DNA of 64,000 bases from a virus (taxonomy: Duplodnaviria > Caudoviricetes): the IMG/VR virus record IMGVR_UViG_3300011560_000001, positions 64,001-128,000 of that record; one strand, given 5' to 3'. The position numbers and the translations under genes were made by a program. Shown one piece after another: positions 3,960 through 49,047 of this stretch. Position 1 is the first letter of the stretch. Each line of letters opens with the position of its first letter. Below the pieces are notes generated by a model, which had not been told where the DNA came from, did not search any database, and saw only the letters and a program-made list of their open reading frames with translations.

Positions 3960-4853
3960 ATGACAGCTCAAGTATCACTTACTTTAAAAACACCTTGGCA
4001 ACTTATCGTTGATGAGATCAACACACTCAACGCCGACACTGGTGCCAACTTCAAACCCACCGACCTTAAATACGTTCTTAAATCCAAAAGCGATTCTGCT
4101 CCAGATGCAACTTTAACGCTTAGCCCTGGTGAAGGTACTCCTTACTTCAATGACCGCGATGTTACCTACCATCGTCTGGATCTGGCTAAGTGGTTCCAGA
4201 AGATCGCCGTACGTGTTAACGTTAATAAAAACACCACCATCGGTGATGTGGTTGACCTTGTAGCTCAACGCTACGGTATGATCACACCTTCCGGTGAGAA
4301 GTTCCTGGATAAAACGAAAGACATCAAAGCCGATACGTTAAATACGCCGGTTACCTTTGAGCAGTCGGGTATCCAGACGATCACTTTGGAAGCCAAAGAA
4401 GATTCGCTGGCTTGGTATGGTTCCGTTGAAGTTAAAGTTTATAACACCACGCTGGATCTGGCTAACATCATCAAGGTTACCAACCTGGGTAACTTAACCT
4501 ACGTTGATGAAGGCGATGGCACCAAGACCTCAGCGCGTCTGTTAACCTATCCGTTAGACTTCAGTACCTACACCACAGGCCTACAGGCGATCATCAGTGA
4601 TGAAACCAAGATCGATGAAACCCTGGCAGGTAACCTGACCACGCTGATCAAAGAGCAGACGGGTGTAAGTGATGATATCATCAATGAACTGAAAACCAAT
4701 CTGCAAACAGCTACCTTTGTCTATAACGGTGCTACCACCGGGTCTACCGACAAGGGCGTTAACGCTACGTACAGCAATGTGCTAGTGGTGTCGTTAACCG
4801 ACGGTACCCACACCTACGGTAAAGCCGTATTCGGTTATAACGTTTCCGAATAA
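3960..4853 (+). CDS. Putative virion structural protein
   Basis: 297-aa ORF with SD GAGG; Thr/Asn-rich beta-type composition; paralogous motifs with 3289-3819. Confidence 0.6.
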   Translation: MTAQVSLTLKTPWQLIVDEINTLNADTGANFKPTDLKYVLKSKSDSAPDATLTLSPGEGTPYFNDRDVTYHRLDLAKWFQKIAVRVNVNKNTTIGDVVDLVAQRYGMITPSGEKFLDKTKDIKADTLNTPVTFEQSGIQTITLEAKEDSLAWYGSVEVKVYNTTLDLANIIKVTNLGNLTYVDEGDGTKTSARLLTYPLDFSTYTTGLQAIISDETKIDETLAGNLTTLIKEQTGVSDDIINELKTNLQTATFVYNGATTGSTDKGVNATYSNVLVVSLTDGTHTYGKAVFGYNVSE

Positions 4854-4864
4854 TTTAATCTCTC

Positions 4865-4896
4865 CCTTCCTCCTTCCCTGTTGGGTTGGAGGAAGG
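4865..4896. terminator. Terminator hairpin, family A (CCC-N4-GGG apex with TT/TT internal loop)
   Basis: CCTTCCTCC-TT-CCC-TGTT-GGG-TT-GGAGGAAGG followed by TTTATG. Confidence 0.7.
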
Positions 4897-4959
4897 TTTA
4901 TGTTTGTGTTTATTCTTCTCTTTATATTTTCTAATGATAAGATTAAGTACCTGGAGTAA

Positions 4960-5480
4960 AAGTTTACAGATGTTGTAAATGTATTTGGAAAGTAAAATTT
5001 CCACGACCTCGGCCCCTTCGGGGGACGGGGGAGGAGCGAAGTCCTTTAGAGACGAGCAACAGGATAACTCTAAGAAAAAGAAAAACTAAACGAGCGAAGC
5101 GAGTTTATGTTTTTATCCTTAGAGTTATCAAGCTATAAGCGTAGCGTTAGCGTATAACGGTTATGTCGTATACGAATGCAATGAGTATAGACGAGATACT
5201 CTGATGAACAACGTGAAGAAGAGTATCACAAATGGTTTTTTTTTGAGTTATCCAACTTATAAGCTTATTAACTTAGTTTAAATATACAAACAAGATAAAT
5301 AAAACAACTTAAACATACCAAGATAAAACGATTAAACCATTAAGACATAACCTAAGATAAACAAGATAACATAGACAATACACTTTTAACAAACACAGAT
5401 AACATCTTACTTAAATCAAAATACCTATTCTCGTTTACCTTCCTTGAAACACCTCTTCTAAATCCATCCCTTCTTAAAAC
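4960..5480. other. Large non-coding region: hairpin cluster followed by an A-rich, G-poor tract; candidate replication origin
   Basis: No ORF in 4854-5652; consecutive inverted repeats 4963-5227; repeated AGATAA in 5290-5402. Confidence 0.45.
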
Positions 5481-5510
5481 AAAACCCTTGCTTTAATGCA
5501 AATCCTTTCA

Positions 5511-5576
5511 CGACTATATTACCTTCATGATGCCATGCATCATGAACGCGACGCGTAAGCGTTACCTTCATGATGC
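5511..5576 (+). repeat. TACCTTC leader-hairpin repeat, copy A
   Basis: About 55 nt closely matching 31174-31230; TTACCTTCATGATGC occurs twice. Confidence 0.7.
5512..5530 (+). promoter_or_regulatory. phiKZ-type early promoter
   Basis: GACTATATTAC-N5-TG; TATATTAC is the described phiKZ early promoter core; lies upstream of a run of small + strand genes. Confidence 0.75.
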
Positions 5577-5652
5577 ATACGTACAATGTTCGTATTGCGT
5601 CAAATAGAAATCAATACGTTGTTTAATTAACGTGAAACAGAGGATCTTTTAG

Positions 5653-6402
5653 ATGAACGATGAATTAATTTTTGATGTGGTGTTTATTGAACATGATTAT
5701 CTAACGTTGCCTGAAGCGGTGCAAGCAGAATGCGTGAAGGTTAAACGTTGGTGGAACGGTTCGGAAGGAAGCATGATCGAAGGGATGGATGGTGAGGTTG
5801 GACGGTTCCGTCAGCGGGGTTGTTGCATCGCCCATCCGGTAGACTTATCTGTGGTGCAGTTGCGTGCGCATAAGAGCCAGCATCCGCAACGGATGAGCGC
5901 AAGCGGACTACGAGTACTTGCGTCGGGAGAGCAGCTTGGGGACGCATGGTTGTATCCTACCGCGGATGCTTTGCCACGGTCGATGGTGGACGCAGCGAAT
6001 CAGGTTGTTGGGACGGTGTATAGCGGTGAAGTGCACAACGTATCAGGAGCACTCGAAAATGACGTACGCGCACTTCCTGGTTGGATCAATCATACCATCG
6101 GAACGTATTACACCAAGCGGCTGGAACGGGTTGCCTTATTCGTTGGCGAGGGTTCCGATAAGCTTTATCAGCAAAGACTGATGGTGCTTAAACGTTACTA
6201 CCCTCGGGTTATCCATCCTTTCGGTTACGCCTGGGTTAGCGAAGCGCGCTACAATCCCCGCAAACAACGCCTGGAAGCGAAGGTACTTAACGAACGTTGG
6301 CTACCTGTCATGCATCCTAGAGTTAGCGTTGATATCGCGCAGAAGATGCTTGAGAAAAGCAAGCTGGTATGCTGGGATGTGACTATGTTGCGCCATCCCT
6401 AA
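5653..6402 (+). CDS. Hypothetical early protein
   Basis: 249-aa ORF with SD GAGG, first gene after the early promoter. Confidence 0.7.
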   Translation: MNDELIFDVVFIEHDYLTLPEAVQAECVKVKRWWNGSEGSMIEGMDGEVGRFRQRGCCIAHPVDLSVVQLRAHKSQHPQRMSASGLRVLASGEQLGDAWLYPTADALPRSMVDAANQVVGTVYSGEVHNVSGALENDVRALPGWINHTIGTYYTKRLERVALFVGEGSDKLYQQRLMVLKRYYPRVIHPFGYAWVSEARYNPRKQRLEAKVLNERWLPVMHPRVSVDIAQKMLEKSKLVCWDVTMLRHP

Positions 6403-14598: not shown

Positions 14599-15780
14599 AT
14601 GAATACTGTTGAATGGGGCCTAGTTGATCAATGCCCTCAAGTCCCGGTTATCTGTGGTACAGAGAAATACGGCGAAGATCGTTTTATCGTACCGTTGGTC
14701 AGTACGACGACAAAATATCCGGTTAGTGAAGATGCATTAACCGGTCTGTTGGCACATCTTAACGACGGTAAGGTGCCCGTCATTAGCAGTAAAATCGTAG
14801 CGGTGCTCGATGGCGCTGAAGTGTGCTTCCCGATTCGTGACGTGAATGATATCGTCGGTCGCGTTCTAACGGGATGGTTGGAAGACGATGGTGTGGTAAA
14901 AGCCTTGATTCATATTGACCGCGATACTCCTAATGCGGAACGTGTGAGACAAGCATTGAATTCGGATGCTACACGTTTGCAGATCACTGTCATGGACGTT
15001 GGTGCTGAAAACAAGTATATAGTTGAATACTTCGTTCCCGTGGTATCCATCGAACCTTTTGACCGCATTGCTGAGCAACCTGAACCTACCGCAGATAAAA
15101 TAGTGACGCCAGCGGTAATGCGAAGTATCACTGCAGACAACTCGGTATTGAACAATGAATCTATCATCCTACGTGGTATTGTTCCTACTGGATACAACGG
15201 TGAAGCATTATTAGTCAGAATTCCGGAACTTAATAACCGTCGTGTGTTTATTGGATGTGTTGGGTATGAAGTTCTGTACTTCGACGCCGAAGGTCGTGCT
15301 GTGATTGCGACAAAATCAAAGTTATTTAACCAGCATAAAGCGCAAGCGTCCGCAACCCAACCGTACCGGCTGGTGTATTCCGAATATAAAGTAACGATCT
15401 GGTTCGTGAACGGCAACGATACCCTTAATAGTGCTTTTCCAGAGAAAACATTTAAACCGGTGACGTTAATAGAAATGTTCGGCGGTGAGGTATGCTTAGC
15501 TAATTGCGCTAACGGTCAGTTCTGTCTACCCTCCTGTTGCGGGTTCAAGACGGATGACACCGTTACCGTAAACGATACGCGTGTACATTTAGTAAGAATT
15601 GATGTTAGCTCTGGTTTTGCGGTATTTGAAGCTTTCGGTGAGATTCTTGAAAATCTTAAAGAGGCTTGTAAGATCTCAGAACCATTCGGTGATGAACGCA
15701 GCCTTATCATCGTTAAACGTACCGATGTCGATCGGGTCGAGATTACAGTATCGCAGCCGATAACGGCGAAAACGAAGTAG
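14599..15780 (+). CDS. Hypothetical protein
   Basis: 393-aa ORF with SD AAGGA. Confidence 0.7.
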   Translation: MNTVEWGLVDQCPQVPVICGTEKYGEDRFIVPLVSTTTKYPVSEDALTGLLAHLNDGKVPVISSKIVAVLDGAEVCFPIRDVNDIVGRVLTGWLEDDGVVKALIHIDRDTPNAERVRQALNSDATRLQITVMDVGAENKYIVEYFVPVVSIEPFDRIAEQPEPTADKIVTPAVMRSITADNSVLNNESIILRGIVPTGYNGEALLVRIPELNNRRVFIGCVGYEVLYFDAEGRAVIATKSKLFNQHKAQASATQPYRLVYSEYKVTIWFVNGNDTLNSAFPEKTFKPVTLIEMFGGEVCLANCANGQFCLPSCCGFKTDDTVTVNDTRVHLVRIDVSSGFAVFEAFGEILENLKEACKISEPFGDERSLIIVKRTDVDRVEITVSQPITAKTK

Positions 15781-22602: not shown

Positions 22603-22656
22603 TCGACGTCCTCGGTTAAGTTGTATTGGAAATTTCATACTATCAAGGACACACGC

Positions 22657-23208
22657 ATGTTTACTACACTCAAGGCGTTGCCCTGGCTTTTCCCTTTTCT
22701 TCGCGAGTTGTTTCGGCGAAGTAAGCGACCACCCACACGCTATCGTCGAGATGGAGCTCGACAGTCCTCGATATTCTTGATTACGGGTTTTTTCATCGTG
22801 TTGGGTATCGTGACGTTATTTGCTGGCGAAAAAATCTTTACCTTGATGGCTGAGGCGAATAGTTTACGTCAGGAAAATACAACATTGCGCTATGCGCGAG
22901 ACACCAACCGAGAACTGATTCATCAACTCTACACATCGAACGAAGTGCGAGGTCGTTTAATCGACAGTATGGTTGAACAGAACCGGATTCTCCAAGGTGA
23001 GGTCGATCGTGCATTACGAACTTTTGAAAAAGAGCAAGTTGCCAGGAGGAAGTTTCAAGAACGCGTTGAGCGTTTTATCGATACTTATTATGTCTGTAAC
23101 AGTCTGGCCTCCGTCGAACAGCGCAATCAGTGTGTAACTAATGGTGGAAAATTACGGTCAATGAAAATCGATCGCAATCAACCAACGTCAACTGACGGTA
23201 ATCGGTAA
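22657..23208 (+). CDS. Membrane-anchored coiled-coil protein
   Basis: Start reassigned (SD AAGGA); one TM (IFLITGFFIVLGIVTLFAG), coiled coil, two C-terminal Cys. Confidence 0.6.
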   Translation: MFTTLKALPWLFPFLRELFRRSKRPPTRYRRDGARQSSIFLITGFFIVLGIVTLFAGEKIFTLMAEANSLRQENTTLRYARDTNRELIHQLYTSNEVRGRLIDSMVEQNRILQGEVDRALRTFEKEQVARRKFQERVERFIDTYYVCNSLASVEQRNQCVTNGGKLRSMKIDRNQPTSTDGNR

Positions 23209-23258
23209 TACCGTACAACTTTGGGCTATCATACGGACAATGATTAATGAGGTTTACA

Positions 23259-48754: not shown

Positions 48755-49047
48755 GGATCGTTGTGAAACGTTCTAGGGTGACGGTTCAACGACTAAGGGA
48801 TTCATCCCCCTGTACCCCTCGAGTGAGGCATTCTCCTTGGATAAGAGAATGGCGCTGGATGCGCTGGGAAGAAGTGAACTCTCGTTGAGGTGCTGAAGAA
48901 GCACCGTTTGAAACGAGATGTGATATAGTCTGCTCTTGCGTGAGAACGTAAGCGGGAGGTGATGCGCCTATCATCACCTCCGGGATAAGGCTAACGACCT
49001 TATCTGAACAATCCAGACGCACAGTAATTGTATTTTGCTGGATTTCG

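Follow-up and report, generated by a model that had tools for sequence, protein, structure and literature searches.

A conserved plus-strand hairpin array beside the least stable DNA of a Goslar-like phage genome, a candidate replication origin

In the oriF and oriG origins of phage T4 and in the primary origin of T7, a phage promoter is followed by an unwinding element, and the transcript serves as the primer. The complementary-strand origins of M13, G4 and phiX174, like the ssoA origins, use hairpins that form on one strand; mini-hairpins of the d(GCGAAGC) type, which are especially stable as DNA, occur there, and in M13 and ssoA RNA polymerase serves as the primase. The promoters of the N4 virion RNA polymerase consist of a stem of 5–7 bp and a 3-nt loop with a required purine at its centre.

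Chimalliviruses have no identifiable primase or sliding clamp, and it has been proposed that they initiate replication at RNA–DNA hybrids (PMC13648698). Their replisome comprises a split B-family polymerase, a DnaB-like helicase and an RNase H-clamp subunit; in Goslar the catalytic activity of RNase H is only partly needed for replication, and the work on the polymerase–RNase H complex leaves initiation open (PMC13648698). The AR9 nvRNAP carries out promoter-dependent transcription of single-stranded DNA (PMC7598289). Here we describe a hairpin element in a relative of Goslar, found in a window of 64,000 nt that spans bases 64001–128000 of a 237.5-kb virus record (the whole record is labelled G000). 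Across the gap that holds the element, the record shares about 89% identity with Escherichia phage Goslar, and we therefore assign it to the nucleus-forming chimalliviruses. Literature searches for a Goslar origin, a chimallivirus origin or a non-coding RNA like this element found none described.

An element between a late gene and an early operon

The gap with the hairpins spans 4854–5652. The earlier note had called it the largest non-coding gap; at 799 nt it is probably the largest that is truly intergenic, and the one longer ORF-free stretch in the genome is at G000 652–1483. On its 5' side lies a plus-strand late gene (3960–4853) encoding a homologue of Goslar gp22, which is an abundant late virion fibre protein (PMC13742148), and on its 3' side a plus-strand early operon of small genes, the first of which starts at 5653. 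Within the gap, the element itself occupies 4956–5244, that is, 289 nt of non-coding DNA with sharp edges, running from a palindromic 12-mer at the 5' end to a T-run at the 3' end (Table 1).

Table 1. Features of the gap, in window coordinates
Feature	Position	Strand	Remarks
Terminator-type hairpin of the upstream late gene	4865–4896	+	Outside the element; member of an 11-copy CCTCCTTCCC family; stem covaries in relatives (T>C with A>G)
AT-rich spacer	4899–4955		Variable; relatives 67–98% identical
Palindromic 12-mer GTAAAAGTTTAC	4956–4967	+	5' edge of the element; invariant in 17/17 versions
Two small hairpins, TTTACA/TGTAAA (4963–4979) and GGAAA/TTTCC (4987–5002)	4963–5002	+	
GC-rich hairpin with cUUCGg tetraloop (5007–5030), then GGA-G-C(GAA)G-TCC (5033–5044)	5007–5044	+	
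Hairpin 1 (12 + 6 + 5 bp), apex C-GA-GC-GAA-GC-GA-G at 5087–5107	5063–5129	+	Stem and apex invariant
Middle segment, GC-GTA-GC mini-hairpin (5139–5145) and tandem TAGCGT (5142–5153)	5135–5164	+	Fold uncertain
Hairpin 2, apex TATAC-GA-AT-GCA-AT-GA-GTATA (5169–5189)	5165–5192	+	Apex pairs covary
Hairpin 3, 8-bp stem, two tandem G.A steps round U-A, AC-AAC-GT apex	5195–5227	+	Invariant
T-run	5236–5244	+	3' edge of the element and start of the low-stability tract; 5–9 T in relatives
G-poor tract, candidate unwinding element	5245–5510	+	Indels among relatives
Early-promoter core TATATTAC (5515–5522) and leader hairpin (5524–5546)	5515–5546	+	Neighbour, outside the element

Read directly from the sequence, the three hairpins, the GC-GTA-GC mini-hairpin and both TAGCGT hexamers (5142–5147 and 5148–5153) lie where the earlier note had placed them. 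Hairpin 1, TAAAC-GA-GC-GAA-GC-GA-GTTTA, sits as described atop a long stem, in which 5063–5074 pairs with 5118–5129. Hairpin 3 is likewise in place but departs from the geometry that all three had been said to share: its stem pairs 5195–5202 with 5220–5227, and its interior (5203–5207 versus 5215–5219) is better read as two tandem G.A/A.G steps round a U-A pair. An additional C(GAA)G triloop at 5037–5041 is the fifth in the element. Counting both strands, the 237.5-kb genome contains 10 instances of the pattern of a stem of at least 4 bp, GA, 2 bp, 3 nt, 2 bp, GA and the closing stem strand, where Markov simulations give 4.7 ± 2.0, and on these counts we dropped the idea of a dispersed genome-wide family of such hairpins. 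With Watson–Crick stems of at least 5 bp, the pattern is found only in the two instances that lie within the element, 62 nt apart.

The 12-mer at the 5' edge has four exact copies in the genome (G000 2742 on the minus, 68956 on the plus, 144457 on the minus and 148127 on the plus strand), where about 0.03 would be expected by chance, and near-variants lie at G000 58267, 124264, 132444 and 186678. Copies and near-variants alike are intergenic only, often over the stop codon of the upstream gene. This excess, together with the placement between genes and over stop codons, marks the 12-mer as a signal of some kind, and we regard it as a candidate promoter or protein-binding site. Further into the element, 4994–5006 resembles the upstream half of the phage early promoter but lacks its TATATTAC core. 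That core is the commonest repeated non-terminator 8-mer in intergenic DNA, and the early-promoter family to which it belongs (consensus AAAWTTTCACGRC-TATATTACC-TAGGTGA) has about 13 copies in the genome, on the plus strand in every case and in both arms of the strand bias described below; those inside the window are at 5515, 18057, 31177, 47494 and 55466. The copy at 5515–5522 drives the early operon that starts at 5653. In the window, 5520–5562 also contains a 43-nt duplication of the early-promoter leader, with TTACCTTCATGATGC present twice.

Several ordinary assignments were tried on the element. A search of Rfam 15 with 4700–5800 at E ≤ 10 returned one chance-level snoRNA match, outside the element; nothing in the element reached an Rfam gathering score and a tRNA/tmRNA scan of it was empty, and a known RNA family was rejected on these scans. 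An intrinsic-terminator scan of 4700–5800 found none, the T-run lying 8 nt past the AU-rich hairpin 3, and neither a sigma-70 promoter nor an intrinsic terminator fits, the scan having yielded one weak minus-strand promoter match and no terminator. A 36-codon ORF at 4979–5089 was rejected as a protein-coding gene: it has no ribosome-binding site, single-base deletions occur further on in relatives, and its counterpart in a more distant locus (L018, below) shares the first two residues only. Elsewhere in the window, 48529–48952 (+) matches the Rfam group I intron model RF00028 with 51.4 bits and E = 3.9e-10, the gathering score being 50, and 22639–23246 is a stretch of 608 nt without an ORF of at least 60 aa, with a normal GC content of 0.45 and no excess folding, which may be a missed gene or intron rather than a regulatory region.

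A covariance model (R1) built on 5135–5244 found no second copy in the 237.5-kb genome and nothing in the loci of the clade whose gp22 homologue is 51–54% identical; in PCH45, CR5, pSal-SNUABM-04 and PA7 it found no element, the sole match (E = 0.43) being taken as chance. blastn against all phage records returned Goslar only, and an exact-word scan of GTDB genomes for the element returned nothing. Locus L018, from the 54% clade, keeps the 5' module alone, one gene further on, with a one-mismatch 12-mer at the head, AATGTATT, and the GC hairpin with altered sequence. At 1985–2260 of that locus the GC hairpin is followed by a GA-rich stretch (GTGAGAG-like repeats) with a possible 40-codon ORF, in the place of hairpins 1–3.

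Since the immediate neighbours of the element are a strongly expressed late gene and an early promoter, it might be a cis-acting RNA element of the neighbouring messages, either a 3' extension or stability module of the late fibre mRNA or a late/early insulator or processing site; long perfect stems like that of hairpin 1 could be processing substrates. We consider this unlikely. A strong terminator-type hairpin and a variable spacer stand between the upstream gene and the element, while the early promoter lies 270 nt downstream, so that the element is not in the leader of the early operon. Moreover, other late–early junctions in the genome carry no such element, as judged with R1, and the same junction in the 51% clade (locus L005) consists of the terminator and the early promoter only.

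Conservation and structure of the plus strand

To follow the element among relatives, 22 loci were collected by way of the upstream protein and an exact-word scan, and these gave 17 distinct versions of the element. The element is 95–100% identical to the window in 13 loci; identity elsewhere is 76–90% in the upstream gene, 66–83% with indels in the tract 3' of the element, and within the range of Table 1 in the spacer. The element is under strong purifying selection.

The changes that do occur follow the fold. In 17 of 17 versions, hairpins 1 and 3 are without change in stem or apex. In hairpin 2 the apex changes from U-A to C-G in four versions and, at another pair, from A-U through G.U to G-C, and its loop reads GCA, GTA or GAA. 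The middle bases of GNA triloops vary (5142 T>A; 5179 C>T or A), and T5142A, which alters nothing else than such a middle base, breaks a pair preferred by RNAalifold. Near the 5' end some relatives carry the loop change T4971C or the substitution A4977G, which turns U-A into U.G, and in the ~80% clade the swap C5008T plus T5009C shifts a G.U wobble by one pair. A deletion of C5129 is always paired with a deletion of A5154. On the plus strand, single-sided stem transitions give G.U and never A.C. Covarying pairs number 2 of the 31 in the 3' part (alignment 5135–5244), where most pairs are invariant since the sequence is nearly constant, and three wobble-compatible sites lie in the rest of the element; the observed covariation was matched by 2 of 500 shuffles and never reached by slid structures. 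Two changes disturb the motif itself: A5175/G5183 becomes C/A in one clade, making the tandem G.A of hairpin 2 a G.A plus C.A, and the stem pair A5172/T5186 becomes G/G in two loci (L022 and L030). Because changes preserve pairing or fall in loops and GNA middle bases, the structure of the plus strand appears to be selected, but its exact GA-NN-NNN-NN-GA geometry is not inviolable. The earlier note had asked whether relatives conserve that geometry with covarying stems: the element is kept, its apex pairs covary and the GNA middle base is free, but the geometry is not strictly maintained.

The flanks of the element are mosaic in relatives; locus L028, for example, combines a window-like element with a divergent upstream gene. 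The tract 3' of the element changes by whole modules, at 5257 and 5520–5562 in window terms, and Goslar (L001/L004) and several relatives have an 83-nt insert with a hairpin after the T-run. Close relatives differ in their first early gene (5653–6402), which comes in two or more unrelated forms (~250 and ~260 aa), and in many loci it is about 27% alignable despite an identical adjacent element, a pattern that points to frequent recombination at the junction of element and early gene. A Pfam and PHROG search of the early genes just 3' of the gap gave zero matches, and these adjoining genes, being without a Pfam or PHROG match, were dropped as initiators. Mosaic flanks, the palindromic 12-mer and the extreme conservation at every base, linkers included, would also suit some other signal in the DNA itself, for example a start point for packaging, a sequence by which the genome is moved or anchored within the phage nucleus, or a hotspot of recombination. 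We hold this to be the least probable reading: there is no terminase gene or packaging feature among the annotated neighbours, whose early genes match no known family, and such a signal would explain neither the strand-asymmetric structure and covariation nor the reversal of mutational strand bias at the gap.

Folding was compared between strands and with shuffled sequences. The segment 4956–5243 folds better than 200 of 200 shuffles on either strand, under RNA and DNA parameter sets alike, and the plus strand is the more stable both as RNA (−84.7 versus −67.3 kcal/mol) and as DNA (−42.1 versus −36.2 kcal/mol). Its RNA-like traits are the cUUCGg loop, the G.U-compatible changes, a promoter-like start and a T-run at the end. 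The sequence data fit an RNA reading of the plus strand and a single-stranded DNA reading equally well: the cUUCGg loop and G.U-compatible changes point rather to RNA, and mini-hairpins of the d(GCGAAGC) type are especially stable as DNA.

These traits also define the main rival to an origin, an independent structured RNA gene of ~280 nt on the plus strand that would extend from a promoter at or near the 12-mer to the T-run and work in trans, for instance by scaffolding proteins or as a decoy or regulator, with a coincidental position at the switch in strand bias. We rate this gene as possible, though doubtful. The conserved block has sharp, gene-like edges and runs in the direction of the flanking transcription units, between a terminator and the T-run; its consensus fold contains four G.U pairs besides the cUUCGg tetraloop; stem transitions produce G.U on the plus strand, with one pair passing from A-U through G.U to G-C; as RNA this strand is 17 kcal/mol more stable than the minus strand; and PhiKZ is reported to express non-coding RNAs (PMC13282480). 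On the other side, Rfam gives the element no match even at E ≤ 10, a T-run 8 nt beyond the last hairpin is unlike the phage's own terminators, and loops and linkers vary no more than stems do, which would be unusual if secondary structure were the only constraint on an RNA. The gene would moreover leave the skew reversal and the adjoining least stable tract, both described next, unexplained, and it is compatible with an origin if the RNA is a primer precursor.

Strand bias and duplex stability at the gap

A GC-skew analysis had been proposed in the earlier note as a check on an origin, and it reveals a reversal of strand bias at the gap at third codon positions (permutation p < 0.001). Raw GC skew, flat over the first ~70 kb of the genome and rising beyond, carries no information before the coding-strand term is taken out. 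At third codon positions, the cumulative skew of the top strand (GC3) falls to its global minimum just 3' of the upstream gene and peaks near 205 kb. We modelled top-strand GC3 skew with one term for the coding strand and another for two arms, trying every pair of gene boundaries. Of 243 boundaries, the best first one is where the gene that follows the gap begins, and the ~95% set comprises three boundaries, all within 4.5 kb. The position of the second boundary is diffuse, at 202–217 kb in genome coordinates. When gene order was permuted, the two-arm skew was significant at p < 0.001 both in the window's genome and in Goslar.

In a regression on coding-strand skew, the effect of the arm, that is, of the gene set, is 0.005 ± 0.008 (p = 0.53), whereas the arm-by-strand effect is 0.055 ± 0.008 (p = 2e-10). 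The difference between plus- and minus-strand genes is strong in one arm (p = 2e-6) and has the reverse sign in the other (p = 0.06). There is no overlap between the early operons of one arm and those of the other (p = 0.003), and the skew decomposes in the same way at 4-fold degenerate sites. The early-operon comparison and the regression rule out an explanation by gene class; the bias belongs to the DNA strand, not to the gene set. For the minus-strand genes taken alone (n = 34) p is 0.057–0.09, and independence of the bias from gene orientation, which rests on these 34 genes, is suggestive.

By itself the skew shows a reversal and not its cause, and does not tell an origin from a terminus. 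Given that the leading strand is usually G-rich and that the switch at the gap is the sharp one, we read the gap as an origin rather than a terminus. A fork moving leftward from the gap would be head-on to most genes of that arm (75 plus versus 14 minus). A published survey found the compared genomes of phages with chimallin and PhuZ to be without the typical skew pattern (PMC12625630). In PCH45, CR5, pSal-SNUABM-04 and PA7 the two-arm skew is not significant (p = 0.17–0.65), so that the four other genera without the element are also without the two-arm skew, despite having the same replication proteins. A dominant fixed origin may therefore be special to the Goslar lineage.

The tract that begins at the 3' edge of the element is the most easily melted DNA in the genome. 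The least stable 100-nt and 200-nt duplex segments start at 5236 and 5230, at the T-run, and are 4.9 and 5.7 SD below the genome mean, respectively; the tract 3' of the T-run also has the lowest G count in the whole genome. Within it, AGATAA occurs in five same-strand copies at 5293–5402 (110 nt), against 0.61 expected (p = 4e-4). These copies could be iterons; their number varies in relatives. A similar tract lies at another gap, at G000 135302–135609 (135.4 kb), beyond the end of the window. This stretch ranks second in the genome for low duplex stability, and in it strong hairpins are followed by an A-rich tract with the AGATAA and CATAACC words of window 5290–5400. Given this likeness, A-rich AGATAA tracts are perhaps promoter-upstream features, and the tract at 135.4 kb may be a second unwinding site or such a shared promoter-upstream feature.

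A proposed origin and its relation to known systems

Taken together, structure-preserving conservation, the reversal of strand bias and the adjoining unwinding tract, three independent kinds of evidence drawn from sequence, support the reading of the gap as a putative origin. On balance, the hairpin cluster probably forms the structured core of the principal origin from which Goslar-like chimalliviruses replicate, and that origin would, with the same degree of confidence, have two parts, the 289-nt element at 4956–5244 and the most easily melted tract that continues from its 3' end. The earlier note's reading of a structure-encoded plus-strand signal, probably an origin, is accordingly supported in part, by conservation, covariation and the skew reversal; not all of its specific claims hold, and those particular to single-stranded DNA stay putative.

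From the sharp switch at the gap and the diffuse opposite switch at ~202–217 kb, we infer that forks would depart from the gap in both directions. Initiation would rely on the structure of the plus strand. A transcript made by a phage RNA polymerase could start near the 12-mer and pass through the element into the T-run and the AT tract, and this transcript, or its R-loop, would then be the primer for rightward synthesis. Transcript priming is favoured because these phages have no recognisable primase; in the window's genome, neither the DnaG zinc-ribbon nor Prim-Pol gave a Pfam match, in searches that also missed the phage's diverged DnaB-like helicase. The plus-strand hairpins would act either in the RNA or in the displaced DNA strand, and in the latter they might stabilise the opening or mark a second priming site. 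We propose more tentatively that Goslar-like phages have one fixed bidirectional origin at which a one-strand hairpin array is recognised and one of their own multisubunit RNA polymerases primes. As part of the same joint and equally speculative reading, recognition would be of GNA triloops on tandem G.A pairs and not of double-stranded iterons.

Among candidates so far for a replication origin in this phage family, the element is the strongest. It offers a single precise locus of ~550 bp (hairpin element plus unwinding tract) in Goslar, a genetically tractable E. coli model for which deep RNA-seq has been published (PMC13648698). In the Goslar record NC_048170.1 the locus falls at 15.0–15.8 kb, with the element at about 15,430–15,720 on the minus strand, and the use of third-position skew minus the coding-strand term yields a clean two-arm pattern. 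The reading with one fixed bidirectional origin would, if true, account for the start of replication within the phage nucleus by a replisome that has no primase. If confirmed as an origin, the locus would make in vitro reconstitution of initiation possible, give a handle on how replication is started and kept inside the phage nucleus, and be of use as a part in the engineering of these phages. Should the element prove to be a free-standing RNA instead, it would represent a new phage RNA family, very strongly conserved and unusual in its motifs.

Among known systems, the promoters of the N4 virion RNA polymerase resemble the element in their short stems and 3-nt loops, which are extruded from double-stranded DNA and read on one strand. 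An N4-type promoter, which the earlier note had brought into play, nevertheless does not hold up, for the loop centre is free (A, C or T) and the apex stems have only 2 bp above the G.A pairs. Chimalliviruses, unlike N4, use multisubunit polymerases, and this phage has early promoters of another kind, with a linear motif; the single-subunit polymerase family PF00940 had no match in the genome, in a search whose control was silent too.

Single-strand origins such as ssoA belong to replicons with a fully single-stranded stage, whereas this phage has a double-stranded genome of 237 kb. In ssoA, which serves rolling-circle replicons, the CS-6 hexamer TAGCG(T/A) occupies a terminal loop and the RSB element a long imperfect hairpin. 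The TAGCGT hexamer, which fits the CS-6 consensus, is present twice (5142–5153), in a segment of uncertain fold, and one copy is changed to AAGCGT in a clade. No RSB element or rolling-circle Rep was identified, and a double-strand origin was not seen.

The T4 oriF and oriG and T7 primary origins share with the locus a promoter-like site followed by the least stable DNA, and a polymerase under phage control that would do the priming. They differ in having no long array of conserved hairpins; in the phage studied here, 270 nt of invariant structure lie in between.

ColE1-type origins, at which the pre-primer RNA II forms an R-loop and is processed by RNase H, come close in layout, although there is no sequence similarity and the antisense RNA I or Rom-like control is not seen in the phage. 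ColE1 replicates one way, whereas the phage skew has two arms, and on the phage side the comparison is one of sequence features. In both, a promoter-like start is followed by a few hundred nucleotides that are structured and conserved on one strand, and then by an A/T-rich zone. Neither would need a primase to begin the leading strand, and chimalliviruses depend on an RNase H-containing polymerase complex (PMC13648698).
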